Source of the DNA: a virus
Reading direction: 5' to 3' (one strand)
Virus record (IMG/VR): IMGVR_UViG_3300008450_000004
Span: 52,882-116,881 of that record
Length of the DNA: 64,000 nucleotides
Shown: piece by piece, positions 4,612-36,443 of the stretch
How positions within the stretch are numbered: the first letter of the stretch is position 1
Layout of the letters: the number at the start of each line of letters is the position of its first letter
The notes under the pieces: model-generated
Told to the model about the DNA's origin: nothing
The model's database searches: none
The model's input: only the letters and a program-made list of their open reading frames with translations
Made by a program: the position numbers and the translations under genes

Positions 4612-6152
4612 TGGATGTTTTATTTATAACCCCCGGAAACGCTAGTGGTATTTACCAAAATTTAGCAAATGATTATGCTGCTATTGAACCACCAACATGG
4701 GCTTTACTATTAGCCGAATCTTGCCGATCAGTAGGGTATAAAGTAGGGTTAATAGATATTAATGCTGAACAGTTAGATAAAGATGAGGTAATAAATAGAA
4801 TTAATACTTTTCAACCCCGTTTAATTTGTTTTGTAGTTTATGGACAGAATGTAAACGCAGGCACCGTAAATATGAGCGGTGCTACGTTTATGTCTAAGTA
4901 TATTAAAGAAAAAAACATTAATATTCCTATTAGTTACTTAGGATCTTATCTTCAAGCATTGCCTATTAAAGCTATGAATGATGAACAATCAATTGATTTT
5001 GCTTTTACTAATGAAGGTGTTTATGCATTACGTAATGTACTCTCTAGACCTAATTTCATGAATGAATTGAGTGATATTAAAGGTATAATATGGAGAGACA
5101 ATAATATTCCTAAAATAAATCTATCTGAAATAGTAGTACCTAATGGAAAAATGGATACTGATCTTCCAGGCTATGCTTGGGATTTATTACCATTTAAAGA
5201 AAAACCACTTGATTTATATAGAGCACCTATGTGGCATGCTGAGTATGATCAAAATAAGCGTTCACCATATGCTGCTATTCAAACCTCATTAGGGTGTCAA
5301 TTTGGATGTGATTTCTGTATGATTAATATATTAAATAGAAATAATGAAGATGAAATAGGTGTAGCTGGTAACTATAGTAATATGCGTCACTGGTCACCTG
5401 AGTTTATTATAAAAGAATTTGATAAATTAGTTGAATTAGGGGTACATACAATTAAAATAACAGATGAAATGTTTTTACTTAATAGGAAATATTATGTTCC
5501 TTTATGTGAAATGCTTCGAGATAGAGGATATGGTAAATTTTTAAGAATGTGGGCTTATTCACGTGTTGATACAATTAAACATCCTGATTTACTTAAATTA
5601 GTAAGAGAAGCTGGTATTAAGTGGTTGGCATTAGGGATTGAAAGTGGTGATAAAACAGTACGTTTGGAAGTATCTAAAGGTAGATTTGAAGATGTTGATA
5701 TTGATAAAGTAATCCAACATGTTCATGATGCTGATATTGAAGTAATGGCCAACTATATCTTTGGACTCCCAGGCGATAATAAAGAAAGCATGCAGAAAAC
5801 CTTGGATTTGTCAAAGGAATTATGTACATTCGGGTGGAATGCATATGCTGCTATGGCACTACCAGGAAGTAAATTATATAAAGAAGCTATTGATAAAGGA
5901 ATCCCATTACCTGATACCTATGAAGGATTCTCATTTCATGGTTACAATACATTCCCTTTACCTACAGAAACACTAACAGCAGCTGAAGTATTGGAATTTA
6001 GAGATAAAGCATTTGATGAATATCACTCATATCCTCCGTTTTTAGAAAAAATTAAAAATAAATTTGGTTCTATAGCAGTTGATAATATTAATAAAATGTT
6101 ACAAATTAAACTAACACGTAAAATTATAGAAAATGAAAAATCTTCTAACTAA
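4611..6152 (+). CDS. B12-binding radical SAM protein
   Basis: N-terminal cobalamin-binding-like domain, CQFGCDFC (CxxxCxxC), GIESG, YIFGLPG. Confidence 0.9.
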   Translation: MDVLFITPGNASGIYQNLANDYAAIEPPTWALLLAESCRSVGYKVGLIDINAEQLDKDEVINRINTFQPRLICFVVYGQNVNAGTVNMSGATFMSKYIKEKNINIPISYLGSYLQALPIKAMNDEQSIDFAFTNEGVYALRNVLSRPNFMNELSDIKGIIWRDNNIPKINLSEIVVPNGKMDTDLPGYAWDLLPFKEKPLDLYRAPMWHAEYDQNKRSPYAAIQTSLGCQFGCDFCMINILNRNNEDEIGVAGNYSNMRHWSPEFIIKEFDKLVELGVHTIKITDEMFLLNRKYYVPLCEMLRDRGYGKFLRMWAYSRVDTIKHPDLLKLVREAGIKWLALGIESGDKTVRLEVSKGRFEDVDIDKVIQHVHDADIEVMANYIFGLPGDNKESMQKTLDLSKELCTFGWNAYAAMALPGSKLYKEAIDKGIPLPDTYEGFSFHGYNTFPLPTETLTAAEVLEFRDKAFDEYHSYPPFLEKIKNKFGSIAVDNINKMLQIKLTRKIIENEKSSN

Positions 6153-6743: not shown

Positions 6744-7280
6744 ATGAAATATTTTGATGAATTAAAGCGATCTATGGATTGGCTTAGTGAAAAACCAGAC
6801 ACCCTATTCTTAGGACAGGCTGTGGAATATGCTGGAACTGCAATTACTAATACATTAAAAGATGTAGACAGAAATAAAATGCTTGAAATGCCCGTAAATG
6901 AAGATATGCAAATGGGCATGACATTAGGTATGGCTTTAAATAACACAGTACCTATTTCTATTTACCCTAGATGGAATTTTTTATTATTAGCAGCTAACCA
7001 GTTAGTAAACCATATAGATAAAATTAAAATTATGTCTGATGGTGGGTATGCACCTAAAATCATTATTAGAACATCTATTGGTGCACAACGCCCACTTCAT
7101 CCTCAGCACCAACATATTGCTGATTTTACACCTGGTTTTAAAGCTATGTGTGATTGGGTTGATTTTATTAGATTAGATGAACCTTACCAAATTTTTGATG
7201 CATTTAAATATGCATATGAAAGAACAGATAACCGTCCAACTGTACTAGTTGAATGGGGAGATTACTACGGAGAAAAATAA
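6744..7280 (+). CDS. transketolase/E1 beta pyrimidine-binding subunit (no C-terminal domain)
   Basis: EMPVNEDMQMG, NQLVN, HPQHQH. Confidence 0.85.
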   Translation: MKYFDELKRSMDWLSEKPDTLFLGQAVEYAGTAITNTLKDVDRNKMLEMPVNEDMQMGMTLGMALNNTVPISIYPRWNFLLLAANQLVNHIDKIKIMSDGGYAPKIIIRTSIGAQRPLHPQHQHIADFTPGFKAMCDWVDFIRLDEPYQIFDAFKYAYERTDNRPTVLVEWGDYYGEK

Positions 7281-7283
7281 CAT

Positions 7284-8459
7284 ATGAATAACTTTTATTT
7301 ACCTTTAATGAGTGATAATATTGATAAAGAAGATATCAATTCACTAATTGACTTTTTAAGTCAAGATCAAATACCTAAATTAACCAACGGACCTAAAGTC
7401 ATTGAATTTGAAAACAAATGGGGTGAATGGTTAGGAACTAAATATAATCTAATGGTTAACTCAGGAGCATCTGCTAATGAATTAACAATGTTAGCTTTAA
7501 ATTACATACACGGCCAAGGTGAAATTATAGTACCACCACTTACTTGGATTTCAGATATTTCATCTGTTATTTTTAGTGGATTTAAACCTGTATTTTGTGA
7601 TATTAATTTAAAGAATTTCTCATTTGATATTGATAAATTAAAACAAACAATCACACCTGATACTAAAGCTATATTCTTAACTCATGTATTAGGTATTAAT
7701 GCTTTAACTGATGAGTTAATTCAGTTATGTAAAGATAACAATATATTATTGATTGAAGATGTTTGTGAATCACACGGTGTAACATTTAAAGGACAAAAAG
7801 CTGGTTCAATTGGTTTTGCTTCTAATTTTAGTTTTTATTTTGCACATCATATGTCTACTATTGAAGGTGGAATGATCTGTACTAATGATGAATATTTTTA
7901 TCAAGTATGTAGAGCATTACGTTCTCATGGTATGACTAGAGAAATGACTGATAATAATTTAAAACAAGAAATCATTGAAAACCACCCTGATTTAAATCCA
8001 GATTTTATTTTCCTACACCCAGCACATAATTTTAGAAGTACTGAAATCAATGCAGTAATTGGTTTATCTCAAATTAAAAAATTAGATTCAAATAACACAC
8101 ATAGAATAGATAATTTTAATTATTTTATGAGTAAACTAGATTCTAACAAATACCATACTGATATTGAATTAGAAGGTCAATGTAACTATGCTTTTATAAT
8201 TGTATTAAAAGATGGTTCATTTGAAATGAGAGATAAAGTAGAATCAACATTACGAGAAAAAGGTATTGAATTTAGAAGAGGCTTATCAGGTGGTGGTAAT
8301 CAATTAAGACAACCATATTTTAAGAAAAACTATAACATCAACTATGATGATTTTAAAAATATGGATCATGTTCATCATTTTGGTTGGTATGTTGGTAATT
8401 ACCCAACATTAGAAAGAGAAAAAATTGATACATTAATTAAAACACTAAACAATCTATGA
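7284..8459 (+). CDS. DegT-family aminotransferase or 3-dehydratase (ColD/RfbH-like)
   Basis: VNSGASAN, EDVCESHG, SFYFAHHMSTIEGG; His rather than Lys at the PLP position, as in 3-dehydratases. Confidence 0.8.
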   Translation: MNNFYLPLMSDNIDKEDINSLIDFLSQDQIPKLTNGPKVIEFENKWGEWLGTKYNLMVNSGASANELTMLALNYIHGQGEIIVPPLTWISDISSVIFSGFKPVFCDINLKNFSFDIDKLKQTITPDTKAIFLTHVLGINALTDELIQLCKDNNILLIEDVCESHGVTFKGQKAGSIGFASNFSFYFAHHMSTIEGGMICTNDEYFYQVCRALRSHGMTREMTDNNLKQEIIENHPDLNPDFIFLHPAHNFRSTEINAVIGLSQIKKLDSNNTHRIDNFNYFMSKLDSNKYHTDIELEGQCNYAFIIVLKDGSFEMRDKVESTLREKGIEFRRGLSGGGNQLRQPYFKKNYNINYDDFKNMDHVHHFGWYVGNYPTLEREKIDTLIKTLNNL

Positions 8460-8950
8460 GAATACCAGTACACCCAGATGTAAAGATTTATAACCACGAT
8501 GTCCATTATGATTTTAGAGGTGAATTATGGACATTATGGAAAGAAGGCGAATTTCCTAGAACTGATGTTAAATTCAATCATGATAAGATTTCTACCTCAA
8601 GAAAACATGTTTTAAGGGGAATCCATGGTGATTCTAAAGCATGGAAGTTAGTAGAATGTCTTTATGGTGAGCTATATTTTGTTGTTGTAGATAATAGACC
8701 TGAATCAAAAAACTACAAGAATTGGACAGGTATGATGCTCTCAGACAAAACAAGACAATCAGTATTACTCCCCCCAGGATTTGGAAACGGATTTTTAGTA
8801 ATGAGTGATCATTCAGTATTTCATTATAAATGGGCATATGAAGGAAAATACCCAGATGTTGATGAACAATTTACATTAAAATGGAATGATCCTGAATTAG
8901 ATATTGAATGGCCTATTGATAACCCAATTTTACAAAAAAGAGATAAATAA
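8456..8950 (+). CDS. rmlC: dTDP-4-dehydrorhamnose 3,5-epimerase family
   Basis: DFRG, VLRGIH, PPGFGNGF, WNDPELDIEWP. Confidence 0.9.
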   Translation: MRIPVHPDVKIYNHDVHYDFRGELWTLWKEGEFPRTDVKFNHDKISTSRKHVLRGIHGDSKAWKLVECLYGELYFVVVDNRPESKNYKNWTGMMLSDKTRQSVLLPPGFGNGFLVMSDHSVFHYKWAYEGKYPDVDEQFTLKWNDPELDIEWPIDNPILQKRDK

Positions 8951-9429
8951 TGAATTTTAAAAATTTTATTAGAGAAGTTCCTGATTTCCCTAAACCAGGG
9001 GTTTCATTTAAGGATATATCGCCTTTATTGCAATCACCTATGTTTCCTTATATTATTGCACAAATAAAAGCACTATCATCTATTCCTAATTATTGGGTAG
9101 GTATTGATTCTAGAGGCTTTATATTCGCCTCAGCCTTATCTATGTCTAGTGGAGGTGGATTAGTAATGTGTAGGAAAAAAGGTAAATTACCTCCTCCAGT
9201 TGTAAGTGAAACATACAGTTTGGAATATGGTGAAGATACATTAGAAATGCAACCTGGTAGAGGTACTGTAGTAATAGTAGATGATGTTTATGCTACTGGT
9301 GGTACTATGGATGCTGTTGAAAAATTATGTATTAAAGCAGGGTATAATGTTATAGATAAATTAGTATTAATTGATTTAAAATTTCTTCATGAACCCACAA
9401 ATGTTAAGAGTTTAATACAGTATGAGTAA
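8950..9429 (+). CDS. apt: adenine phosphoribosyltransferase
   Basis: PDFPKPGVSFKDISPL, RKKGKLP, YSLEYG, VDDVYATGGT. Confidence 0.92.
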   Translation: MNFKNFIREVPDFPKPGVSFKDISPLLQSPMFPYIIAQIKALSSIPNYWVGIDSRGFIFASALSMSSGGGLVMCRKKGKLPPPVVSETYSLEYGEDTLEMQPGRGTVVIVDDVYATGGTMDAVEKLCIKAGYNVIDKLVLIDLKFLHEPTNVKSLIQYE

Positions 9430-9976
9430 AGTTTTTATAATAGCACTAACAGATGAAACAGGTGGTGTTGGAGAGATAGGAAATTATCCTATTATATATA
9501 GTGGTGTTGGTAAAATTAATGCTACTATGGCTGCTTATAATGCCTTTACTAAAGGATATACTGAGGTTATTAATATTGGGTCTTGTGGGTCATTAAAACA
9601 TAAACCAGGAACAATAATTAAAGTAGGATCTGTATTTCAAGATATAGATGCTAGACCTTTATGTGAATATGGAGAAACACCATTTGAACCACAATATAAA
9701 CAAGTAGTTTTAGATAGAACTACCCTTTCTACTTGTTTTTCTACAGATTATTTCATAGATTTATCTCAGAAAGAAAAATATTCTAAAGAATACATCAAAA
9801 TGGTAAATAATTGTGATATATTTGATATGGAATGTTTTGCTTTAGCTAAAGTATGTCATCGTTTCAACATTAAATTTAGCTCATATAAATGGGTTTCAGA
9901 TAATGGTGATGGTGGTGATTGGAAAGAAAATTGTAAAATAGGTTTTGAACAAGTAAAACGATTATTGAATGAGTAA
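9422..9976 (+). CDS. MTA/SAH nucleosidase-like protein (PNP_UDP_1)
   Basis: GVGKINA, INIGSCG, DMEC, VSD. Confidence 0.85.
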   Translation: MSKVFIIALTDETGGVGEIGNYPIIYSGVGKINATMAAYNAFTKGYTEVINIGSCGSLKHKPGTIIKVGSVFQDIDARPLCEYGETPFEPQYKQVVLDRTTLSTCFSTDYFIDLSQKEKYSKEYIKMVNNCDIFDMECFALAKVCHRFNIKFSSYKWVSDNGDGGDWKENCKIGFEQVKRLLNE

Positions 9977-10751
9977 TCTAAAAAAAGAAGAATTTAAAAA
10001 TTTTAATGTATTAATTATAGGTGATACATGTATAGATCAATTTATTTATGGTTCTGCTGTTCGTTTAGCACCCGAAGCACCTGTACCTGTATTTAATCCG
10101 TTAAATGAAGAAACTAATGCAGGAATGGCAGGCAATGTTGTTGCTAATCTAAAAGCATTAGGCATCCATACTTATTTTATATGCAACCCAGAAATTGTTA
10201 CTAAAACAAGATATGTTGATGATAGATCCGGACAAATTTTATTACGTGTAGATAAAAATGATAAAATAGCTCCAATTGAACCTGGTACAATTAAATCTAT
10301 AAAAAACAATATGGTTAATGGTACTAAATTAGATGCTATTATTGTTAGTGATTATGATAAAGGTTTTCTAGGAGAAGAAGATATTCAATTTATTTGTGAA
10401 AATAATACTAATGTATTCATCGATACTAAAAAAATACTAGATAAATGGTGTGTTAATGCTTCATTTATTAAAATAAATCATGTTGAGTATGAACACACAG
10501 AATATTCTTTAAAAGACTTAAACATTGAAGACAAATTAATCATTACTTTATCAAACAAAGGATGCCAGTATAAAGGTAAATTATTTCCCGTTAATAAAGT
10601 TCAAATTAAAGACGTATCTGGAGCAGGAGATACTTTCCTTTCAGGATTAGTAGCAGAATATGTTTTAACTAAAAATATAGAAAAATCAATTAAATTTGCC
10701 CAAGAATGTGCTACTGTAGTAGTACAAAAACAAGGCGTAGCAACAGTATAA
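9969..10751 (+). CDS. heptose-7-phosphate kinase-like PfkB protein (RfaE/HldE domain I)
   Basis: RLAPEAPVPV, SDYDKG, DVSGAGDTF. Confidence 0.88.
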   Translation: MSNLKKEEFKNFNVLIIGDTCIDQFIYGSAVRLAPEAPVPVFNPLNEETNAGMAGNVVANLKALGIHTYFICNPEIVTKTRYVDDRSGQILLRVDKNDKIAPIEPGTIKSIKNNMVNGTKLDAIIVSDYDKGFLGEEDIQFICENNTNVFIDTKKILDKWCVNASFIKINHVEYEHTEYSLKDLNIEDKLIITLSNKGCQYKGKLFPVNKVQIKDVSGAGDTFLSGLVAEYVLTKNIEKSIKFAQECATVVVQKQGVATV

Positions 10752-10753
10752 TT

Positions 10754-12433
10754 ATGGTCACGTATAACATAGAATCAGTAGGCAATGTATCTTTTCATGA
10801 GCCACTCAATGCAGAAGCATTTAAATTTAAACATGAAAAATTTTCAGAATTAATTCCCAAAGGCTCAATTGTTTTAGATATTGGTGCTCACGTTGGTGGA
10901 TTTAGTATTGTATTTGGGAGTTGTGTAGGTGAAAATGGTAAAGTACTTGCTTTTGAACCTAATCCTAAAACGTATGGTGTGTTAGTAGAAAATGCAAAAA
11001 ATAACCCTACTTTTAATATCATTCCTCACAATTTAGCTAGCACCCCTGAAACCAAAAAATACACATTTAATTATTCAGATCCTACTTTATATAATAATGG
11101 AATGAATGGTGGTTATTTTGATGAACTAAAATATGGGGAACAAATAAAACAATTTCATGGTTATAAAGTAGAAGTAAATGGAGTAAATACTATTGATTTC
11201 TTAAAAGAAAAATATAGTGATTTAGTTGATAAAATTAACTTTATTAAAACCGATACTGAAGGGTTAGATAAAGAAGTGTTAAAAACATTAGCACCGCTTA
11301 TCAAGAAAAATAAACCTGTATTAATGGTTGAAGCATTTAGAAGTTTAAATGAGGAAGAAATTGAAGATTTTTATAATGTTTTAAAATCGTTTGATTATGA
11401 AATATATGATGTATCTCCTTTGGATAATAAAACAGATTGTACTGGTCCCTTAACTAAAGAAGAATTTGGACATTATGTTCATCACGTAGTAGATAATGGT
11501 AATTTTTTCTGTTTCCATAAAGATGAAGTTCATAAATATAATTTGCCTCTTACTAAACCTGGTAAAACAGCAGTTGTTGTTTTTGGTAGAAATGATGGAT
11601 ATAAAGAAAAAGAACGATTTGCCATTCACTTAACTACAATGTTGGAAACATTTGATGAAGTAATTTATGTAGATTGGAATTCACCAACTCATAGTTTTTT
11701 ATATGATGTTATGGATTTAATTCCTAAAACTGGTAGATTAAAACATTTTGCTATTCCACCTGAATATGCGGATATGATGACCATGAATGATCCTAAAGCC
11801 CAAGTATGTAATACAGTTTTAGCATTTAATCTAGGTATAAGGCGCACTGATGCTGAATGGATTGTATTATCTACTACTGATATTATTCCTCCAACTAAAG
11901 AAGCATTAAATGATTTTATTTTTAAAGCAAATAAAAATGCAATGTATTCGTTTAGTAGAAGAGATATTGAGTATGATGATGTAATTGCTAATCTAAATAA
12001 TTTAAATGAACATAGAAAACATCTAGATGCAACCACAGAACCAAGATATTTCCCAACTAAAGTAACCCCTAATGATAATTACAGTATGTTTAACTGCTGT
12101 GGTGATTTTCAATTAGCAACTAAGAATCTATGGTTTAAAATTAGAGGATATGAAGAACCTATGTTATATGCTTGTTTTGTAGATACAAATGCTCAAAAGA
12201 AAGCTGTTTTATACGGATTTGATTTAGTACCAGTATATGATGTTCCTTTGTATCATATGTCTCATAAAGGTATGGGGAATGATGGAGCATCACCTTCAAA
12301 ACAATTTTATAACGATGCTGGAGAATGGGTAGAATATTTTGACAAATACATAGAACATGATCATATTATGTTTTCACGTAATGCTGATACTTGGGGATTT
12401 TCAAATGTTGAAATTGAGTATGAGGTGATTTAA
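10754..12433 (+). CDS. FkbM-family methyltransferase fused to a glycosyltransferase-like domain
   Basis: DIGAHVG, AFEPNP, KTDTEG followed by GRNDGY, VDWNS, NLGIRR; start moved to the ATG after the upstream stop. Confidence 0.75.
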   Translation: MVTYNIESVGNVSFHEPLNAEAFKFKHEKFSELIPKGSIVLDIGAHVGGFSIVFGSCVGENGKVLAFEPNPKTYGVLVENAKNNPTFNIIPHNLASTPETKKYTFNYSDPTLYNNGMNGGYFDELKYGEQIKQFHGYKVEVNGVNTIDFLKEKYSDLVDKINFIKTDTEGLDKEVLKTLAPLIKKNKPVLMVEAFRSLNEEEIEDFYNVLKSFDYEIYDVSPLDNKTDCTGPLTKEEFGHYVHHVVDNGNFFCFHKDEVHKYNLPLTKPGKTAVVVFGRNDGYKEKERFAIHLTTMLETFDEVIYVDWNSPTHSFLYDVMDLIPKTGRLKHFAIPPEYADMMTMNDPKAQVCNTVLAFNLGIRRTDAEWIVLSTTDIIPPTKEALNDFIFKANKNAMYSFSRRDIEYDDVIANLNNLNEHRKHLDATTEPRYFPTKVTPNDNYSMFNCCGDFQLATKNLWFKIRGYEEPMLYACFVDTNAQKKAVLYGFDLVPVYDVPLYHMSHKGMGNDGASPSKQFYNDAGEWVEYFDKYIEHDHIMFSRNADTWGFSNVEIEYEVI

Positions 12434-12453
12434 TATTTATTTAAAATAAATTT

Positions 12454-12999
12454 ATGACAAAAAATAAACGTATTTTAGATAAATCAAGTAGAGTAATAAC
12501 TTTAGGTGATATAAACAACGATAATGCGTGTTCTGTAATAAATTTTATTTATGATATAAATAACGAAGATGAACCTAAAGAAGCAGACAAACGCAAACCA
12601 ATTCAATTAATTATAAACTCACAAGGAGGAAGTGTATATGATGGTATAGGAATAGTAGACGTTATTGAACAATCTATAACACCTATACATATATATGTTC
12701 ATGGTCAGGCACAATCAATGGCTTTTGCTATAGTTACATCAGGACATTATAGATATGCAGGAAAACGTGCAGTTTTTATGTATCATCAAGTAAGTTGGGA
12801 AATGGCTCAAGAAAAACTTATACAACATGAACAAGAAGTAAAAGAAGGAAAACGTTTGTGGAAAGTATATGATGATATTGTTTTAACTAATACTAAAATA
12901 CAATTAAAACAATTAAAACAAATCCATAAGGAACGTAAAGAATGGTATCTGACTGCAGAAGAAGCACTTAAATTAGGTGTAATTGACGAAATTCTTTAA
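12454..12999 (+). CDS. clpP: ClpP-like protease proteolytic subunit
   Basis: INSQGGSV, QAQSMA (Ser), MYHQ (His), AEEALKLGVIDEI. Confidence 0.85.
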   Translation: MTKNKRILDKSSRVITLGDINNDNACSVINFIYDINNEDEPKEADKRKPIQLIINSQGGSVYDGIGIVDVIEQSITPIHIYVHGQAQSMAFAIVTSGHYRYAGKRAVFMYHQVSWEMAQEKLIQHEQEVKEGKRLWKVYDDIVLTNTKIQLKQLKQIHKERKEWYLTAEEALKLGVIDEIL

Positions 13000-15613: not shown

Positions 15614-15904
15614 ATGAATATAGGAAGTATAGTAGAATGTATAAATGATTCATTTGATTCAAAATCAATTGAATTAATACCCAATAGACCTAAAAAAGGA
15701 AAAATTTATACTATTAAAGGTATTAAAGATTATCCTGATAAAAATTCTACAGGGGTGTTATTAGAGGAAATAATCAATGAACCTTTAATGTTACCTAATT
15801 TAGAGGGATTATTTGAACCTACATTCAATATTGAACGATTCAGAGAATTACCAGAAGTAAATATTGAAGAATTAATTGAAGAATTAACATTAACTCATGA
15901 CTAA
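15614..15904 (+). CDS. hypothetical protein
   Basis: ORF; IGSIVECIND...GKIYTI. Confidence 0.55.
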   Translation: MNIGSIVECINDSFDSKSIELIPNRPKKGKIYTIKGIKDYPDKNSTGVLLEEIINEPLMLPNLEGLFEPTFNIERFRELPEVNIEELIEELTLTHD

Positions 15905-27826: not shown

Positions 27827-28941
27827 ATAAATTAGATTTAGATTACCAAAATTTACTAAAAGATATTTTAGAAAATGGCATAAAAAAAGAAACTAGAAAT
27901 GGTGGTACCATTAGTGTATTTGGTAGACAAATACGTCATAAAATGAGTGAAGGATTTCCACTTCTTACAACCAAGAAGATGAGTTGGAAATCAATTGTAA
28001 CAGAGTTATTATGGTTCTTACGTGGTGAGACATCAATAGAATATCTCTTAAAAAACGATTGCAATATCTGGACAGGAGATGCGTATAAGAATTATTGTGA
28101 AAATATAAATCTTCCACCAACACGAACATTACCATTGGGAACTAAGGTAATTCCTACATTATACACACAAGAAGAATTCATCAACAAAATCAAAACAGAT
28201 GATGAGTTTGCTAAACAGTGGGGTGAATTAGGTCCGATTTATGGTAAGCAATGGAGAAGATGGAAAGGTAAGTTAGTTGATAAATCAATAGAGTTTGATG
28301 CACATACTGCCTGGGTACCTGAGCAAATAGATCAAATTGCAAACTTAATCAACGACCTAAAAACAAACCCAGACTCAAGACGATTAATGGTTAATGCTTG
28401 GAATGTAGGTGAATTAGACCAAATGGTACTTCCTCCTTGTCATTATAGCTTTCAAGTTTATACAAGAGAGTTGAGTAAAGATGAACGATTAGAATGTCTA
28501 AATAAGATAAAGGATAAAGATGGTTTGTTTATCACAAAGTTACCACATAAACATTTACGTGAGCTGTTTGAAAAACATAACATTCCAACCAGAGCAATCT
28601 CTTTAATGTGGAATCAACGTTCAGTAGATACATTCTTAGGTTTACCATTCAATATTGCTTCTTATGGATTGTTATTAGAAATCATTGCTAAAGAAGTTAA
28701 TATGGTTCCTGATGAACTTATAGGTAACTTAGGCGATACACATCTTTATTCTAATCATATTGAACAAGCTAAAGAACAAATTGGTAGAGAACCATATCCA
28801 TTACCAACATTAAATATTTTTGAACCAACAATTGGTAAAAAAATATCTATACTTGATAATTTACATATATGGTCACCTAATTGTTTTATTATAGAAAACT
28901 ACCAATCACACCCAACAATTAAAGCACCTTTATCAAATTGA
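27823..28941 (+). CDS. thyA: thymidylate synthase
   Basis: FPLLTTKK, ELLWFL, LPPCHY, QRSVD.FLGLPFNIASY. Confidence 0.97.
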   Translation: MNKLDLDYQNLLKDILENGIKKETRNGGTISVFGRQIRHKMSEGFPLLTTKKMSWKSIVTELLWFLRGETSIEYLLKNDCNIWTGDAYKNYCENINLPPTRTLPLGTKVIPTLYTQEEFINKIKTDDEFAKQWGELGPIYGKQWRRWKGKLVDKSIEFDAHTAWVPEQIDQIANLINDLKTNPDSRRLMVNAWNVGELDQMVLPPCHYSFQVYTRELSKDERLECLNKIKDKDGLFITKLPHKHLRELFEKHNIPTRAISLMWNQRSVDTFLGLPFNIASYGLLLEIIAKEVNMVPDELIGNLGDTHLYSNHIEQAKEQIGREPYPLPTLNIFEPTIGKKISILDNLHIWSPNCFIIENYQSHPTIKAPLSN

Positions 28942-28969
28942 TCGATATTTATATTAAATAACAAACATA

Positions 28970-29281
28970 ATGAAAAAATCAGAGCTAAAACAAATTATTA
29001 AAGAAGAAATTAGTAAGATAATAAACGAATTTAAATACGAAATAATTGATCCTCAACAATCAAAATAATCATTAAATAATATATTAGACGCAATAAAATT
29101 ACTAAATAACAATGGATTGAAATTAACTCCTGAAGATAAAAGTGGTCATTATTCAGGCGGATATAATCATATCAATTCAATGTATGTAAATAGCCCCGTT
29201 CCTTTTGATGTATTAATAAGAAAGGCTAATGATATATTAGCTCAAAACGACATGGAGCACTTAAAGATTATTGAAGTATAA
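28970..29281 (+). pseudogene. ELKQIIKEEI-leader protein with an in-frame TAA at 29066
   Basis: the frame stays open for about 70 codons after the stop. Confidence 0.55.
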
Positions 29282-29284
29282 TAA

Positions 29285-29944
29285 ATGAATAAAACTCCTC
29301 CTTACATATCAGATGATTTTCAAATAGGACCAGATGGTGCGTTTGAATACATTGAAGATGATATTGTTAGAAATAGAGGAAATAAAAATATGAGTAATAA
29401 AGAAGATAAAATATTAAGGGAAATATACAAACGTGCTTATGCTGCTGCTACACCACCAGCCGATTTTGATATATTAATAGCTAATGCTACCTTAGACGAA
29501 TATAATAGAAAAGTAATACCATATAACGATTATGAGTTAGAAGATGGTATTGCCCAACAAATAATAGATGATGTAATGAAGGAATTTAAAGTAGCGAAAT
29601 GGAAACGTCAATTGTTTAATAATACATATTGGTTAGGTTGTTCACCTAAGAGTAAACAAGATGATTTATCAGATTGGAATGTTACACTTAATGATGGAAT
29701 CTCTATAATAAATTAAGGCTTGGCAGAGTCTTTTTTGTATATTTATAAAAATAAATTTAACATGGATGATATTGAAGAAAAAAATTATCGAATGGAGTTA
29801 TTTAGGAATTCACCTAATTACAAATGGCCTAAAGTAGATTCAGAGGAAATGATTAAACCTCATTCAAAAAAAGGTCGTAAACCAAAACCCTCTAAACGTA
29901 TTATAAATAAATCATCTGAACATTATAAATGGTGGAGAGATTAA
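29285..29944 (+). CDS. two hypothetical proteins (29285-29716, about 29762-29944)
   Basis: ORF track. Confidence 0.5.
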
Positions 29945-30144
29945 TATGATAGTAACAAATAAAACACAAGAAGTTATAGAAGAATTTGGTGTAGACCTGG
30001 TTTATGAAGTAATTGAAATAGTGTCAATGTCAGATGCTGATGGTGCATATACAATGTTTGGGGATATGGGTATGTTTGATCATCAGGCCTGTGTTGAAAT
30101 GTTGTATTTCGAATAAAAAATTATATTTTTAATTGTATAAGATT

Positions 30145-30177
30145 GGGACTGTCAAAGTCCCTTTTTTATCTTTACAC
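30145..30177 (+). promoter_or_regulatory. hairpin plus GTCAA-N11-TATCTTTA promoter motif at the head of the cassette array
   Basis: GGGAC-TGTCAAA-GTCCC-TTTTTTATCTTTACAC. Confidence 0.55.
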
Positions 30178-30267
30178 CTGTTAAACGTCCGATGATAAAC
30201 AATCGTTTTAATGTTGTTTATCATTTGTTATATTTAGTTTTCGTTTAATTTACAAAATAATAAAAAT

Positions 30268-30516
30268 ATGGAAAAAGAAAAATTTATTGATGATAATGGT
30301 AAAGAAATATATGAGATTTCTTGTAAGACCGTATATAAGGAAGAGGATTTATCACCACATATTGTGTGTAATTTCACCTTAAAAAATATTGATGAAAATT
30401 GGGTAGTCAATATGAAAGAAGAAGATAGAGAAGAATTCATAACTGATGCTTTTTATAAGTTAAAATATTTTTTAAGGGGTGAAATTGGTAGTATTAAAAA
30501 ATTAAACGAAAATTGA
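30268..30516 (+). CDS. cassette 1 ORF, hypothetical
   Basis: ends just before the ATATAAC core. Confidence 0.65.
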   Translation: MEKEKFIDDNGKEIYEISCKTVYKEEDLSPHIVCNFTLKNIDENWVVNMKEEDREEFITDAFYKLKYFLRGEIGSIKKLNEN

Positions 30517-30650
30517 ATATAACGATTCGCAGGTATGAAACGTGCCAACACAAATGATAATTGAAACAATGAATTTGAAATTAACATAAATACTAACTTA
30601 GATGCACCAAGGGCATGTTTTATACTTGCTGTTAGGCATCTGTAAAAATT

Positions 30651-30818
30651 ATGGATATGAAAACGAAAAATTACATTAAAACTTATTATAAGTTATACTT
30701 TACTGAGTGGAAATGGGTAATACTTGGAGTTGGTGCATTACCAATATTTGTACTGATATTGTTATCAGGGATACTACATGACATTACACACCCACTTAGT
30801 AATTTTTATTGTGCATAA
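30651..30818 (+). CDS. cassette 2 ORF, 55-aa single-TM protein (not in ORF track)
   Basis: MDMKTKNYIKTYYKLYFTEWKWVILGVGALPIFVLILLSG...; stop codon lies within GCATAAC. Confidence 0.6.
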   Translation: MDMKTKNYIKTYYKLYFTEWKWVILGVGALPIFVLILLSGILHDITHPLSNFYCA

Positions 30819-31073
30819 CGGCTGCGTGTATGAAACGTAGCCACACACAACACTTGATATAAACCACAGACCTTAATTGGCTATGTTTTATACACGTTGT
30901 TATAAATATGGTTTTAGGTGGCGAAAGCAGTAGCACCATCTATTTGAATGTATTTGATTTAGTACTGGCGAGGGAAAAGTTAGTCATTCACACCTAAAAC
31001 TTGTTTATAACGTTTTGCGTATTGGCGTTGTTGCCAACACTAATGTTAAATTGAAAAAATAAATTTGAAATAT

Positions 31074-31295
31074 ATGGAAAATATTGATTTGAAACAAGAA
31101 AGCAATAATGCTAATACGCTGTTATCGGCAGTTTCTCGTCCTGTTGCTAAAATGAAAGTACAATGGCATGGGTATGATTGTATTATACAGAAACTACGAT
31201 ACAGAGATAAGGTTGCTAAACTCAAACCTGATTATAGTGGTAAACCCATGCCATACGATTATTTTTGGGTAGATTTTAATGAAATCGGTTTTTGA
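31074..31295 (+). CDS. cassette 4 ORF, starts inside the hairpin loop
   Basis: MENIDLKQESNNANTLLSAVS...; reads through the stem and GTT. Confidence 0.55.
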   Translation: MENIDLKQESNNANTLLSAVSRPVAKMKVQWHGYDCIIQKLRYRDKVAKLKPDYSGKPMPYDYFWVDFNEIGF

Positions 31296-31350
31296 AATTG
31301 CCGATAACGGTTTGCGTGTTTATTTAGTTGCGATTTAAAAATACAAAATT

Positions 31351-31545
31351 ATGATAAAAGAAAAAGAATACTTAGAAGCAAAAAAGATTGTTGAAACCTA
31401 CGAAAGCGAGCAATTGAATAAACACGCTGTTAGTGGGCAAAGCGAACAGTTACCAAACTCTTGCGAATGTGATAATGTAGAAACATTCAATGGCTGGGGT
31501 AACGAAAAATGTATTAGATGTATAGACTGTGGCAGAGTTTGGTAA
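31351..31545 (+). CDS. cassette 5 ORF, zinc-ribbon-like, starts inside the hairpin loop
   Basis: EQLNKHAVSGQSEQL crosses the stem; CEC...CIDC. Confidence 0.6.
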   Translation: MIKEKEYLEAKKIVETYESEQLNKHAVSGQSEQLPNSCECDNVETFNGWGNEKCIRCIDCGRVW

Positions 31546-31608
31546 TTGCCACTAACTATTATATATACTTAACCATATTTTCTTACCAATAAAATCAATA
31601 ATTTAAAT

Positions 31609-32406
31609 ATGAAAATTCTTAAAGTATTTGAAGAAAAATTAAGATACAAAAACTATTCTAATAACAGTATCAAGTTATATATTTCTTATTTAAAACTTTT
31701 TTTAGAAACGGAAAAAATTAAAGACCCATATCAAGTAAGAACTCAACAGATAGTCTCATTCCTTGAAAATTACCCATATACTTCTTGTAGCCAACAAAAT
31801 CAATATATAGGTGCTCTTAAACTATTTGCTAAATATATCTTAAATAAAAAGGATATTCATTTAAGTAAAATAGAAAGACCTAAATCAGAAAAGAAATTGC
31901 CGAAAGTGGTAGATGGAGAGCTTATCAAAACACAACTACAAAAAATAGAAAATATTAAACATAAAGCAATTCTTAGTTTAACCTATTCAGTTGGACTAAG
32001 AGTATCTGAAATAGTTAATCTTAAAATCGAAAGTATCGATTCTAAACGAATGTTGATTCACATTAAAAACGCTAAAGGTAAAAAAGATAGAATTGTACCC
32101 TTATCACCAACTGTTTTGAATCTACTTAGAGAATATTATATAGAATATAAACCAAAAGAATACTTATTTAATGGTCAAAACTCAAATCAATATTCAATAG
32201 GTAGTTGTCAAAAAATCTATAAAAAATACATTGATGAGAATAGTTCAATACATAATCTTCGACATTCTTCATTTACCGGCTTATTAGAAAACGGAACTGA
32301 TTTAAGAATAATTCAAAAAATAGCAGGACATTCTAATATCAAAACTACTGAAATATATACTCACGTATCAAATCAACTCTTAGGTAAAGTGAATTTAGTT
32401 ATTTAG
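31609..32406 (+). CDS. tyrosine recombinase, integron-integrase-like (N-terminal SAM-like domain)
   Basis: GLRVSE (R), AKGKKDR (K), HNLRH, AGHSNIKTTEIYTHVS (H, Y); 265 aa. Confidence 0.92.
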   Translation: MKILKVFEEKLRYKNYSNNSIKLYISYLKLFLETEKIKDPYQVRTQQIVSFLENYPYTSCSQQNQYIGALKLFAKYILNKKDIHLSKIERPKSEKKLPKVVDGELIKTQLQKIENIKHKAILSLTYSVGLRVSEIVNLKIESIDSKRMLIHIKNAKGKKDRIVPLSPTVLNLLREYYIEYKPKEYLFNGQNSNQYSIGSCQKIYKKYIDENSSIHNLRHSSFTGLLENGTDLRIIQKIAGHSNIKTTEIYTHVSNQLLGKVNLVI

Positions 32407-32437
32407 AAAGTCAAATCTTCTTTATTATCTTTACAAT

Positions 32438-32995
32438 ATGAAAAAAATTTTAGTAATACATCCTGATGATAGGTCAACCGATTTTTTAAAACCAATATAT
32501 GAAAATCTACCTAATATAACTGTTATTACAGGGGGTATTTCATATATGAATGTTAGACAATTAATAAAAGAGCATGATAGAGTAATAGCCATGGGTCATG
32601 GTTCACCTTACGGTTTGTTTTCAATGGGTAAATTTCCTAATTCAGGTGGTATGATTATTGATTCAATGATGGTAGATGTCTTAAGTGAAAAAAATAACAA
32701 CATATATATTTGGTGCAATGCAGATCTGTTTGTTGATAGATATAAATTAAATGGTATATACTCAGGTATGTTTATTTCTGAAGTAAGTGAATCAATTTAC
32801 TGTGGAATACCTTCAACTCAAGAACAAATAAATGAATCAAATAATACATTTGCTAAAGCATTAGGAGAACAATTATTAATTGAATCATCACTTGAACGAG
32901 TATATGATAATACAAATCAAGCTTATCGCTTATTATCTGAATTAAATCAAGTTGCTAAATATAATCAACAACGATTTTATTACGCTTTAGATTAG
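32438..32995 (+). CDS. hypothetical protein with possible His-Cys dyad (peptidase-like)
   Basis: MGHGSPYG...IWCNA. Confidence 0.45.
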   Translation: MKKILVIHPDDRSTDFLKPIYENLPNITVITGGISYMNVRQLIKEHDRVIAMGHGSPYGLFSMGKFPNSGGMIIDSMMVDVLSEKNNNIYIWCNADLFVDRYKLNGIYSGMFISEVSESIYCGIPSTQEQINESNNTFAKALGEQLLIESSLERVYDNTNQAYRLLSELNQVAKYNQQRFYYALD

Positions 32996-33442
32996 AAAAG
33001 GCAAAACAATTTTATTATATTTAAATAAATAAAAAGATTATGTATAAATGGAAAGTTACATTCACTACACCAACAGCAGGTGGACGTTCACTCACAGAAA
33101 TAATAGAAGCACAACAATGGTTTTATGCTAAAGCCATGTTAGAGTCAAAGTATGATAAAATTAAAATTCTTCAATATACACCTATTAATAAATAATATGA
33201 ACGCAATAAAAATAGTATATTACTCAGAGGTTATAAATAATATGGGTAGAACAGAAAGCTCTGCTAAAGGACATAATATATTTTCCGTTCTGAACAACCC
33301 ATATGAGTGGACTGATGATATGGAGTTTTATGATGAAGGAGGGCAAAAGTACTTTATTGATGACCTTATAGGTAAAGAAGTATCAGTACCGGATATTGGA
33401 ATATTTACTGTAGAAGAATAAAAATTTAAAATAAAAATAAAT

Positions 33443-33763
33443 ATGACAACAATAGCACAGCAATTAAAAATTAAAGAATTTCCATTTTTTATTAAAGACT
33501 CTAAAGGAAATTTAATCTACTATGAAAATTCATATGGTTCTTGGAGTAAATATGAATATGATTCAAATGGAAACGAAATCTACCGTGAAATATCAAACGG
33601 ATATTGGAGTAAACGTGAATTTGATTCTAATGGAAACGAAATCTATCGTGAAAATTCATATGGAACAATCATAGATAACAGACCTAAAACAGTTGAATTA
33701 ACAATGGATGATATTGCTAAGATGTTAAGAATTGACGTTAATAATTTAAAAATAAAAAAGTAA
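33443..33763 (+). CDS. tandem beta-repeat protein
   Basis: repeats of (EY/EF)DSNGNEIYRE(N/I)S.G. Confidence 0.65.
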   Translation: MTTIAQQLKIKEFPFFIKDSKGNLIYYENSYGSWSKYEYDSNGNEIYREISNGYWSKREFDSNGNEIYRENSYGTIIDNRPKTVELTMDDIAKMLRIDVNNLKIKK

Positions 33764-33768
33764 ATAAT

Positions 33769-36443
33769 ATGAGCACATTTAAAACATTACCAAGTAATCA
33801 AATCAATGATGGTATCCAGTATTTAGCATTTTATCCTAATGGGTATGGCGCATCAATCGTTCAACATAGATTTTCATACGGGTACGATCAAGGCTTGTGG
33901 GAATTGGCGGTAGCTAAAGGTACTGAAGAAGATTGGAATATATGTTATGATACTCCAATTACGTCAGATGTGTTAGGTTACTTGTCTGAGGCTGAAGTAG
34001 AAGATGTACTTCTTCAAATAGAAGCTTTAGAGGCTAATCCTAAAATAGTACCTTATAGTGAAGGCACAGTAATATTAGATAAAATATAAAATATAAAATA
34101 TGTCAATAATGAGTTTATTAGGTATGTTATTTTTAATATTAGCATCTATACCAAAAAATAAAATTACCAAAACACCCCATAACGAAAATCTTATTAATTT
34201 GGTTTTATCTATTTTGTGTTTTGTATCATTTATATTATCAATGACGTTACATTAGTTTGTATAGCAAAATTATTTTTATATATTTAACATGAAAAACATA
34301 CATTTATTACCAACATCAAAACCAAGTAGGTTAGTATATTCAGGTAACAATAAAAATTTGTTATTTTCAAAAGAACCTATTTCATTTAGAACATTTGAAA
34401 GAAGTCCACAAAACATCTACATCACTTCTGATGAAGAAATTAAAGAAGGAGATTATATTATTTCCTTAGTTGATGATGAATCATTTGAAATGGTATGGAA
34501 ATGTGATAAATCTCAAATCAAAAATATGATTGATTTTGATTTAGAGTTTAAAAAAATAATACTAACAACAGACCAAGACTTAATTAAAGATAATGTACAA
34601 TCTATTGATGATGAGTTCCTTGAATGGTTTGTAAAGAATCCAAGTTGTGAGAGTGTTGAGGTGAAAATTGATTGTGATATATGTGCTTTAGAGTGTACAA
34701 CAATTAAATGTCCTAATTTGTTTTACAAAATCATCATTCCACAAGAAGAACGTAAACAAATTAAATGTTATTGTGGTCATACTATAACTTGTGATTGTGA
34801 ACCTTTACAAGAAACACTTGAAAAAGCTGCTGAAAAATTTTGGGATAAGTTAAGTTTTGACGATGCTTTTAAAGCAGGTGCTAAATGGCAAGCAGAAAGA
34901 ATGTATAGTGAGGAAGATATGATTGAGTTTGCAGAGTTTGTAGCCACTTATCCTGATAAAAATAAAAATATAAATGGTCAAATATTACATGCTAAATCAA
35001 AATATGATGGCTCTGAAAGAACAGTTGATTTATTAGAACAATTTAAAAAAAAATAATATGAATAAATATGACACTCAACAACATATAATAGTATGGATAA
35101 TGATACTAATACCTTTATTATGTTTGTTTTTATGTGATTAAGGTTTGAACAATTTAAAAAAATAAGACTTATGGAATCAGTAAAACAAACAGCAGTAGAA
35201 TGGTTAATAGAACAATTAACCCCTTCAATATCATTGCAACAAAAACATATTGATGAATTAAAAGAACAAGCCAAAGAAATGGAGAAACAGAGAACAATTT
35301 CATTTGCTTTACTTTGTATGCTTAGTAAACAAGACGTACACATTAATTTAAGAAATGACCTTGTTAGAAAGTACAACGAACAATACGGAGGTAACAAATG
35401 ACACCAAAAGAAAAAGCTAAAGAATTACTTGATAAGTTTGATTGGCAACAATCGCATTAAAAAAGATGCTAAAAGAAGGACAGCCTACATCCTTTGTAGT
35501 AATCAGGCTTATGATTTTAAAATTACATTTAAATAAAATAAATTATGAGTAAACCTAGTTATGAAAAATTATTTGAAGAAAATTGGAAATTAATAAAAGA
35601 AAATGTTTGGATTAAAAATAAGTAATAAAATAGATACTAATACCGGTATATTTCCAATAACACAATTTAAGTTTGATGAAAAAACCGGTTGTCATTGGGC
35701 TAGTTTAGGTAAAATTTGTGATTTAAACTATGGTGAGCGAGAATGGTTAATTTCCTGTCCTGAAGATGAGGGTTGTTGGATAAAATCTAAATGGAAAAAA
35801 TTACATAAAATGGAAGATAAAATTACGAGCACAGTAAATGCGCTAAAGAAGCAAATAAATGAATAAAGTTAGGTAGCACGAAAATGTAGTTAAGGGTGAC
35901 AAAAACGATAGTGTAGGGAAACCGAAAAGAAAGTTTCGGGCGCCCGAAAAATAAGGTTAGGGTGACGGGTGGAATGAGTTTAGGTGATTGGTGGGGGTGT
36001 GGTGGTGCAGGACGAGAAAATTATGCACAACACCACACCAATTCACAACGACTCATATATCAATATATATTATTCGCACATTTTGTACCAATTTTTTATG
36101 TTCTTTTGTATTTTTTGTATGTTTTTGTTTGTTTTGTCAAGGCTTTTTACTTATTTTTACCTAAACAATAAAACCAACCATGTCAAACGTAAAAATTAAG
36201 TCTATTTTTGAACAAATCTCAGAAATAGCATTCAACACAGCCGATTTAGGCTTTGCAAAACAACACACAATTGAATTTGTTTCATCAAAAAACATCAACG
36301 ACAAAGACAAACAATCAATTTTGTTCAATATTAATGAATGTAAAACCCTCTACAAATTTCAAAACTACATTGCTAATGCATTACTTAAATATGAAGGGTT
36401 AGGGGCAGACAGGATGGCGAATGAATATAAACAACACAGATAA
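33769..36443 (+). CDS. small accessory genes (33769-34089, 34289-35056, 35171-35401, 36180-36443 and others)
   Basis: ORF track; KNIHLLPT and KQTAVEWL family motifs. Confidence 0.55.

Follow-up and report, generated by a model that had tools for sequence, protein, structure and literature searches.

A tandem array of five small gene cassettes, each a hairpin-forming site followed by a body, lies directly upstream of a tyrosine recombinase gene in the virus represented by IMG/VR record IMGVR_UViG_3300008450_000004. The window, meaning here the whole stretch of DNA analysed, is 64,000 nt long (bases 52882–116881 of the 116,881-bp record; 28.9% G+C), and all window coordinates count its first letter as position 1. 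The record is classed as linear and ~70% complete, and the large open reading frames (ORFs) of the genome all lie on the plus strand. The cassettes occupy 30184–31556 and are followed by an attI-like site and then by the gene for the recombinase, a protein of 265 amino acids (aa). Together, these elements very probably form a phage-carried platform for gene cassettes that resembles an integron. The stretch is present in metagenome runs labelled freshwater, lake, drinking-water and 'fungus', and no RNA dataset is among the sequencing runs listed for it. The features of the locus are as follows.

30145–30168, plus strand: terminator-like hairpin of the preceding gene with its T-run, GGGACTGTCAAAGTCCC then TTTTTT; upstream edge, outside the array
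30169–30183, plus strand: distal flank left of the first AAC; no ATTGnnnnT motif, unlike the sequence before the other AACs
30184–30520, plus strand: cassette 1, 337 nt; hairpin hp0, body and an 82-aa ORF (30268–30516)
30184–30229, plus strand: hairpin hp0; spacers of 4 and 1 nt, stem of 12–13 bp
30227–30251 and 30499–30523: private repeat of cassette 1; 25 nt, 92%, from the repeat search
30521–30816, plus strand: cassette 2, 296 nt; hairpin hp1, body and a 55-aa ORF (30651–30818) whose stop is the TAA of TAAC
30521–30633, plus strand: hairpin hp1; spacers of 5 and 1 nt, stem of 18 bp including three G-T pairs
Within cassette 2: body-closing repeat GTTAGGCA../..TGCATAAC, read directly from the sequence
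30817–31008, plus strand: cassette 3, 192 nt; hairpin hp2 and body, with a sole ORF of 29 aa (30908–30997)
30817–30901, plus strand: hairpin hp2; spacers of 4 and 1 nt, stem of 20 bp; one of the 47 sequences of the short-hairpin alignment A1
30899–30914 and 30996–31011: private repeat of cassette 3; 16 nt, 81%, from the repeat search
31009–31305, plus strand: cassette 4, 297 nt; hairpin hp3, body and an ORF of 73–76 aa that starts inside the hairpin loop (31065 or 31074) and ends at 31295
31009–31123, plus strand: hairpin hp3; spacers of 5 and 1 nt, stem of 18 bp
31121–31135 and 31294–31308: private repeat of cassette 4; 15 nt, 93%, from the repeat search
31306–31553, plus strand: cassette 5, 248 nt; hairpin hp4, body and a 64-aa Cys-rich ORF (31351–31545) that starts inside the loop of hp4
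31306–31431, plus strand: hairpin hp4; spacers of 5 and 1 nt, stem of 18 bp
Within cassette 5: body-closing repeat GTTAGTGGGCAA/TTGCCACTAAC, read directly from the sequence
31553–31608, plus strand: attI-like site and recombinase leader; TAAC (31553–31556) then TATTATATATAC
31609–32406, plus strand: tyrosine recombinase, 265 aa; Pfam Phage_int_SAM_4 and Phage_integrase

The hairpins share one design, consisting of AAC, 4–5 unpaired nt of which the first is G, a stem of 12–20 bp, a loop of 11–90 nt, a T and finally GTT. The bodies between hairpins measure 113–297 nt, and the private inverted repeat of each opens with GTTA and closes with TAAC. Every body carries one plus-strand ORF, two of the five beginning inside the loop of the preceding hairpin. 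The last AAC (31554–31556) has no hairpin after it and stands 52 nt ahead of the recombinase ATG at 31609. When all 116,881 bp of the genome were scanned, this type of hairpin was confined to the array and one marginal match at window position 15892, and no hairpin of the design was found on the minus strand. In the distal flank at 30169–30183, part of the left half of the original insertion site may survive.

A first-pass annotation, made by a model from the letters alone, had described five units of hairpin and body ahead of the recombinase; all of these elements are present in the sequence, and its hairpin-free AAC at 31554, placed about 50 bp before the ATG, agrees with the 52 nt measured. 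Its spacers of 5 nt and 1–2 nt hold on the GTT side, where there is 1 nt, but become 4–5 nt on the AAC side. The region was begun too early, at 30145, where the first 24 positions belong to the terminator-like hairpin of the preceding gene.

The same annotation held that structure and spacing are conserved and primary sequence is not. The hairpins instead form sequence families, and hp0 is 100% identical to copies in other phages. Each body does have its own repeat, as claimed, but the repeats are not wholly private, and contain a conserved outer motif, ATTGnnnnTAAC on one side and GTTAnnnn(C/T)AGT on the other. Logos around the hairpins give T before AAC (88%), G after AAC (93%), T before GTT (95%) and A after GTT (93%); in the outer motif, ATTG at −9 to −6 stands opposite (C/T)AGT at +6 to +9, with T (96%) facing G (70%). 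When hp0 was searched against all loci by blastn, 28 of the 31 matches began exactly at 30184, and several were 100% identical over 49–58 nt. Some 30 copies of hp0 (30184–30232) are found in loci L004, L006, L024, L037, L152 and others, 96–100% identical beside recombinases that differ by 12–35%, and its word depth in metagenome contigs is ~600, as against 4–30 for its neighbors. It behaves as a widely shared module, often with a conserved leader of ~50 nt up to an ATG. Hairpins also supply coding sequence: in 54 of 92 long hairpins, a reading frame opened by an internal ATG extends for 60 nt or more beyond GTT, and hairpin-encoded N-termini are common to different phage cassette proteins. An Rfam scan of 29900–31800 returned chance-level matches only (E 5.6–9.5), with no attC model among them, and a DNA search of phages with window 29000–33500 returned a single 88-nt match.

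The recombinase and its arrays in phages and bacteria

The recombinase scores below the cut-off of all curated models: XerA, 183.3 bits (cut-off 220); XerC, 150.7 (335); XerD, 149.4 (330); and IntI TIGR02249, 142.9 (265). Motifs that align with XerA and IntI4 include LRHS and IYTHV. The match to IntI4 (2a3v) is split, with residues 8–176 on 10–180 and residues 207–255 on 259–307. The enzyme has 30 residues where IntI4 has 78, and TIGR02249 positions 207–253 are unmatched; the IntI insertion is therefore absent, as had been suspected from the length of 265 aa. In integrons, this insertion is the feature known to read the bulged bases of attC sites.

The family is large, 7,516 of 8,000 scored candidate protein clusters matching at E ≤ 1e-30, and sources name its members XerD or integrase. 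Five Flavobacterium genomes each contain one array-linked homologue (47–50% identity) and two separate paralogues (31–36%). A quick tree was made from 14 phage sequences of clade A (13 hand-picked loci plus the window), six of clade B, one from the Polaribacter phage Freya, 15 array-linked bacterial sequences, 12 Bacteroidota IntI and 10 Xer paralogues; proteobacterial IntI and archaeal XerA are absent from it. The short phage and bacterial recombinases group with Bacteroidota IntI (SH-aLRT 97), apart from the Xer-like paralogues; the tree gives no order between the short recombinases and Bacteroidota IntI, and Freya sits on a long branch. On this quick tree, the recombinase appears to be IntI-related, with its kin among Bacteroidota IntI and not among the XerC/D-like paralogues of the hosts. 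Identity with a housekeeping Xer protein (XerC, XerD or XerA) was considered and rejected, the scores lying under the curated cut-offs and the Flavobacterium paralogues splitting off in the tree. Full-length IntI (TIGR02249 over its cut-off, model positions 1–315) is encoded in 90 of 301 sampled Bacteroidota genomes, a frequency well above expectation. The 1.5-kb flanks of full-length Bacteroidota IntI genes (L232–L243) showed no clear arrays of this hairpin type, flanks of that length being too short to inform.

Among viral contigs, 56 relatives of the recombinase were collected (30–88% identity), and most of these loci with enough flank have a hairpin array upstream of the recombinase homologue; the hairpin-free loci mostly have less than 360 nt of upstream flank. 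The distribution was counted with a refined scan (AACG...stem...TGTT, score at least 9) of these 56 loci plus the window slice, 57 sources that include duplicate phages. The 209,930 nt that precede the recombinase start contained 249 hairpins, the 350,590 nt downstream of it three, and the reverse strand (560,520 nt) none. From the last TAAC onwards (31545–31553), this phage is homologous to its relatives, and upstream of that point the sequences differ throughout. The attI-like TAAC with TATTATATATAC is conserved together with the recombinase; attI-like sites were counted with a loose pattern, whose matches in L011, L036 and L038 are probably not the junction. These data support, at the level of sequence, a single conserved system made up of array, attI-like site and recombinase. 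A lack of co-occurrence between such arrays and this recombinase clade had been named in advance as evidence against an integron-like system; the two do co-occur, with the hairpins on one side and one strand.

No whole cassette was found to be shared between different phages, the shared ones being duplicates of the same phage (L011 and L012; L019 and L025; L027, L028 and L029; L044 and L045). The window's cassette bodies have no homologue in ~220 loci, and the sole match is to the hairpin-encoded start of the cassette 5 protein. In L030, two 149-nt cassettes (2206–2354 and 2597–2745) carry the same 41-aa ORF at 100% identity, indicating a cassette duplicated within an array.

Bacterial homologues (42–50% identity), from Flavobacterium and other Bacteroidota, likewise adjoin arrays of the same hairpin design. 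These arrays lie on the strand opposite the recombinase gene, just beyond its 3ʹ end (99 versus 14 hairpins in 670,650 nt), and the junction adjoining the recombinase, TAAC followed by TAATATATAG, is similar to the phage attI-like site. In 54 of 64 bacterial cassettes, the longest ORF is antisense to the hairpin strand; 53 of the 64 bodies are closed by their own repeat, and the body-closing stems contain 56 G-T as against two A-C mismatches. Such arrays were found in L074, L077, L082, L088, L097, L108, L130, L140, L148 and others, at positions ~6800–12700. Their orientation resembles that termed 'inverted integrase', with recombinase and cassette genes in the same direction and the hairpin strand antisense. 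Comparison of phage cassette proteins with the bacterial arrays gave five weak, methyltransferase-level matches and no sign of exchange.

Cassette gain and loss

Named phages with homologues of the recombinase (35–38% identity) include the Polaribacter phages Freya_1 to Freya_10, Leef and the Cellulophaga phage Ingeline. The records of the Freya phages, which are cultured isolates, are 43,978–48,920 bp long, their size difference lying directly upstream of the integrase. In a joined stretch (record end plus record start), to which all Freya positions refer, Freya_10 is 100% identical to Freya_1, 2, 5 and 9 up to 3679, 4521, 5423 and 8314, respectively, and each of the four resumes at Freya_10 position 8619, which is the AAC in front of ACCCCTATAAC before the integrase. 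In all four comparisons, the junction is ambiguous by exactly three letters, AAC. The partners at these junctions, the attI AAC followed by ACCCCTATAAC and hairpins such as AAC followed by GTTCTACAGC, have AAC alone in common; the exchange is therefore site-specific and not homologous. Freya_10 equals Freya_9 plus one 305-nt hairpin-and-body unit with the private repeat GTTAGCAAC/GTTGCTAAC, Freya_8 is without an internal 902 nt bounded by AAC and AAC, and the cassettes of Freya_6 differ from the AAC at 5423 onwards. Taken together, the isolates are nested, with the integrase-proximal site as the fixed end, a pattern that insertion at attI would give. The first-pass annotation had proposed comparing cassette order among related phages, with identical content and order in all relatives speaking against mobility; near-identical Freya isolates differ by whole cassettes, with their breakpoints at AAC. 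An HNH endonuclease gene directly follows the integrase in all Freya isolates (L057–L063), and the start that the depositors chose for the Freya_1 and Freya_2 records coincides with the AAC of the attI-like junction or lies one base ahead of it.

Variation is also present in the array of the window itself, as seen in assembled contigs (not raw reads) of four metagenome runs aligned to window 28000–34000. A 476-nt contig from run X5, with 0 mismatches, joins 30814–31006 to 31304–31556, so that exactly cassette 4 (297 nt) is missing; the two sides of the joint share only ATAAC, and 30 letters unlike the window follow 31556. The AAC junctions (30814/30843, 31007/31012, 31304/31333 and 31527/31556) are also where contigs of runs X3, X4 and X5 tend to end. 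In run X4, cassette 5 is a separate contig (31304–31556) with an AAC junction at both ends, and in a relative from run X7 (~95% identity), homology with the window stops at 30184 and resumes at 31553. The contig junctions, the hp0 matches that start at 30184, the end of the array in a body and attI, and the ORFs that run from hairpin into body put the probable exchange point on the AAC (5ʹ) side, making the unit a hairpin and the body downstream of it.

The median cassette is 361.5 nt long, and the median ORF, among those of 25 aa or more, has 70 aa. Cargo was sampled in related phages from 20 of the 24 longest cassette ORFs, of which nine belong to DNA methyltransferase families, one more to a domain of unknown function, and ten to no family matched. 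Six of the nine are N6_N4_Mtase, C-5 or partial; the others are MT-A70, C-5 and a weak D12-class match. Such cargo suggests a counter-restriction role, and the probable use of the array is to keep genes for counter-defence and host takeover in exchangeable form. The cassette 5 protein (31351–31545), which matches no family, has a C-terminal Cys-rich stretch, C.C ... C..C..C, that looks like a small zinc ribbon.

Elsewhere in the aligned region, many contig joints skip 86–403 nt inside thyA (window 28028–28900), where word depth is very high. These joints probably stem from thyA genes of other organisms that lack the segments inserted in this phage. Joints with low depth or with sides under 30 letters (such as 30241>30509 and those in thyA) were left unused.

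Folding of the sites and the strand that folds

In 144 of 179 bodies, the two ends of the body pair with each other (score at least 9, with G-T and A-C treated alike), compared with nine of 217 for the two flanks of one hairpin and 10 of 143 when one cassette is skipped. Insertion of each unit as a circle, its long hairpin split at one side, would produce this kind of pairing. Without hairpins as anchors, the search for the closing repeats gave too much noise in this AT-rich DNA and was set aside. Mismatches in the body-closing stems are 155 G-T and 12 A-C, these stems having been selected without preference for G-T; in the hairpin stems, where the detector favored G-T, they number 400 and 49.

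For 47 short hairpins, RNAalifold returned a single stem of 20 pairs, 18 of them with compensatory change; the consensus stem is continuous, with one bulge, next to the loop. In this set, 97.9% of cells are paired, compared with 68.3% after shuffling (0 of 500 as high) and 34–58% with slid partners; the hairpins were picked for having a stem, so that the percentage, unlike the covariation, is partly built in. G-T is held at fixed stem positions in 45, 29 and 26 of the 47.

When the junctions of the five predicted circles were modeled, each folded into a single extended hairpin, at −20.6 to −27.8 kcal/mol on the plus strand and −14.0 to −21.9 kcal/mol on the minus strand. The plus strand thus has the lower energy range in the folding of both strands that had been proposed as a check. 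The same hairpins in their array context reach −8.2 to −17.5 kcal/mol; the junction of cassette 1, for example, folds at −24.7 kcal/mol on the plus strand versus −8.2 in the array.

Of 236 phage cassettes, 222 have their longer ORF on the plus strand, so that the folding strand is also the coding strand, which made RNA structure a serious rival explanation. This result and the plus-strand ORFs of the window agree with the earlier description of cassette genes upstream of, and co-oriented with, the integrase. In the bacterial arrays, the hairpin strand is antisense to the genes and yet retains the G-T excess; the folding strand therefore tracks the recombination system rather than transcription, which points to single-stranded DNA.

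Interpretation and relation to known systems

From the anatomy of the locus and its conservation, the strand-specific pairing and covariation, the AAC-bounded cassette differences and the deletion variant of the phage's own array, we infer the following scheme. A cassette would be a hairpin site and the body downstream of it, mostly with one small gene on the same strand. Cleavage by the recombinase would fall at or within the conserved AAC that precedes a hairpin on its 5ʹ side; exchange with the AAC of another hairpin would yield an excised circle, and exchange with the attI-like AAC would insert a cassette. In the circle, the two private repeat arms of the body would flank the hairpin and lengthen its stem, which would then comprise an R-box-like duplex (ATTGnnnnTAAC/GTTAnnnnCAGT), an asymmetric 5-nt/1-nt internal loop, the 18–20-bp stem and the loop. 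The substrate would most likely be the plus strand, folded as single-stranded DNA. This strand may be marked by the conserved G-T pairs and the asymmetric loop, which would replace the bulged bases read by the extra helix of classical IntI.

Several points weigh against this scheme. The recombinase at the locus is the presumed cutter of the array, judging from sequence, and related recombinases of the host Flavobacteriia could act in trans. No circular intermediate is among the assembled contigs, which cannot show circles, and no complete cassette is common to different phages at different array positions, only hairpins and hairpin-encoded N-termini being held in common. Because the hairpin detector accepts only sequences with a stem, the pairing percentages are in part a product of the selection. 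Folded singly, the hairpins have modest energy z-scores (−1.07 to −3.63, plus strand), and by energy hp0 and hp2 are no less stable on the minus strand. In bacteria, the hairpin stems have a smaller G-T excess (180 versus 112). Finally, none of the five window cassette proteins belongs to a Pfam or PHROG family.

The foremost alternative, which we consider unlikely, retains the enzyme and the exchange point but assigns recognition to duplex core sites around TAAC, leaving the hairpins to termination, promoter context or replication. The conserved junction motifs (ATTGnnnnTAAC, G after AAC and T before GTTA) would permit sequence-specific binding to duplex DNA, the attI-like partner is free of hairpins, and the modest z-scores of single hairpins fit as well. 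A G-T excess on one strand (155:12 in phages, 56:2 in bacterial body stems) has no role in duplex DNA, however, and neither do compensatory changes in 18 of 20 pairs or a fixed asymmetric 5/1-nt spacer; moreover, the private repeats make sense solely as parts of one folded site. RNA structure has its main support in phages, where the folding strand is sense in 222 of 236 cassettes and many ORFs (54 of 92 long hairpins) begin in the hairpin loop, and G-U pairs are typical of RNA. An element acting as RNA alone, its stems serving mRNA processing, stability or translation control without any DNA recombination, is nonetheless the least probable of the explanations considered, for in bacteria the folding strand is antisense in 54 of 64 cassettes with 56 G-T against two A-C, and neither the AAC-bounded differences between otherwise identical genomes nor the link to the recombinase would be explained. 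An additional RNA role of the hairpins in phages is possible.

Scarcely more probable is shuffling by homology with no dedicated enzyme, in which the neighboring recombinase would be a lysogeny integrase or a dimer resolvase. Hairpin modules are indeed repeated, at up to 100% identity between arrays, shuffling at PeSL elements with formation of circles is known in T4-type phages according to the available text of two reports (PMC2839356, PMC4122927), and the Freya integrase was taken by its authors as a sign of temperate potential (PMC8776804, main text). Yet AAC alone is common to the junction partners in four Freya comparisons, which is far too little for homology; breakpoints are not scattered within the repeats, and the arrays accompany one recombinase clade, always on one side and strand. 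The integron-like reading, put forward in the first-pass annotation, is supported by the conserved system, the breakpoints at AAC and the cassette 4 deletion variant.

Likeness to classical and sedentary chromosomal integrons is extensive. In both, a tyrosine recombinase lies beside an insertion site and an array of mostly single-gene cassettes, AAC...GTT imperfect palindromes fold on one strand (five of five sites in the window), and the start and end of a cassette are complementary, the site being split on insertion. Gain and loss proceed by cassette, with exchange at a conserved triplet (Freya and the run X5 contig), the variable cassettes begin at an attI-type site at the recombinase gene, and the recombinase groups with Bacteroidota IntI in the quick tree. 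The intI gene is sense on the bottom, folding strand of attC, just as the recombinase gene lies on the folding strand here. Unlike classical integrons, the enzyme is without the IntI insertion, and the stems are long (18–20 bp) and continuous, with conserved G-T pairs instead of bulges; bulged, extrahelical L-box bases are the defining strand mark of attC. The spacer is asymmetric (5/1 nt), and the R-box-like duplex is 12–25 bp long with a conserved outer motif. The departure from canonical attC that had been seen in the asymmetric spacers and long stems is thus confirmed, with 5/1-nt spacers and bulge-free stems of 18–20 bp. The phage system further differs in its carrier, a phage, in genes that lie on the folding strand with the site before the gene, and in an array read towards the recombinase. 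The classical antisense orientation of genes relative to the folding strand is absent from the phages and present in the bacterial relatives (54 of 64).

Other systems share some of these traits. Filamentous phages of the CTX type use host XerCD to integrate the whole genome at dif via a folded single-stranded hairpin. This is similar in its insertion-less recombinase, its folded strand and its unpaired center between two binding arms, and differs in being a one-off event carried out by host enzymes, with no cassette array or dedicated platform. The small genes of unknown function that are flanked by repeated stem-loops in T4-type phages, and are gained and lost as modules, are alike in the available text on PeSL cassettes (PMC2839356, PMC4122927); exchange there is driven by homology between near-identical motifs, and here by partners sharing AAC only, with a dedicated recombinase and an attI-like site. 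Using IntegronFinder, Qi et al. 2023 (PMC9892861) described classical attC-like sites and cassettes in phages, in part bacterial integron fragments and in part virulent phages with clusters of at least two attC sites and no integrase, and tested them with bacterial IntI1. The attC-like sites, the methyltransferase cargo and a flavobacterial case, Polaribacter phage P12002L, are points in common, and the accessible text of PMC9892861 contains no phage-encoded short recombinase with its own attI and hairpin-first cassettes. Bartlau et al. 2021 (PMC8776804) reported Freya genomes of 44.0–48.9 kb with 66–78 ORFs; the words 'integron' and 'variable region' do not occur in the main text. In the available text, Smyshlyaev et al. 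2021 (PMC8138268) called the IntI insertion 'not fully conserved' in an integron-like subgroup, and Ghaly et al. 2021 (PMC8618304) placed Bacteroidota among the phyla with integrons. A literature search, which extended to papers but not to the supplements of PMC8776804 and PMC9892861, found none on this phage cassette system.

A broader proposal, which we regard as evenly balanced between right and wrong, is that Bacteroidota and their phages harbor a second, insertion-less branch of integrons, in which a short IntI-related recombinase would recognize long hairpins that are free of bulges and marked by G-T pairs and an asymmetric loop; phages would have turned this design round, with the hairpin serving as leader and first codons, to make a fast-swapping counter-defence store, DNA methyltransferases being one example of its genes. 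Enzymes of this short type may preserve the form that preceded the gain of the extra helix by IntI. Integrons are held to require both that IntI-specific helix and the bulged bases of attC. A large family of recombinases without the helix, lying beside sites without bulged bases, still carries the full genetic signature of cassette capture, natural gain and loss in cultured phages included. In current annotation, its genes are labeled XerD or integrase and read as signs of lysogeny, as in the main text of PMC8776804. The questions opened concern the need for the IntI insertion, the origin of integrons from Xer-like enzymes, and the part played by phage cassette platforms against host defences, for which the Polaribacter phage Freya and its host are a ready experimental model. 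If the proposal is true, the counter-defence array of the phages would mirror the defence cassettes of bacterial integrons.

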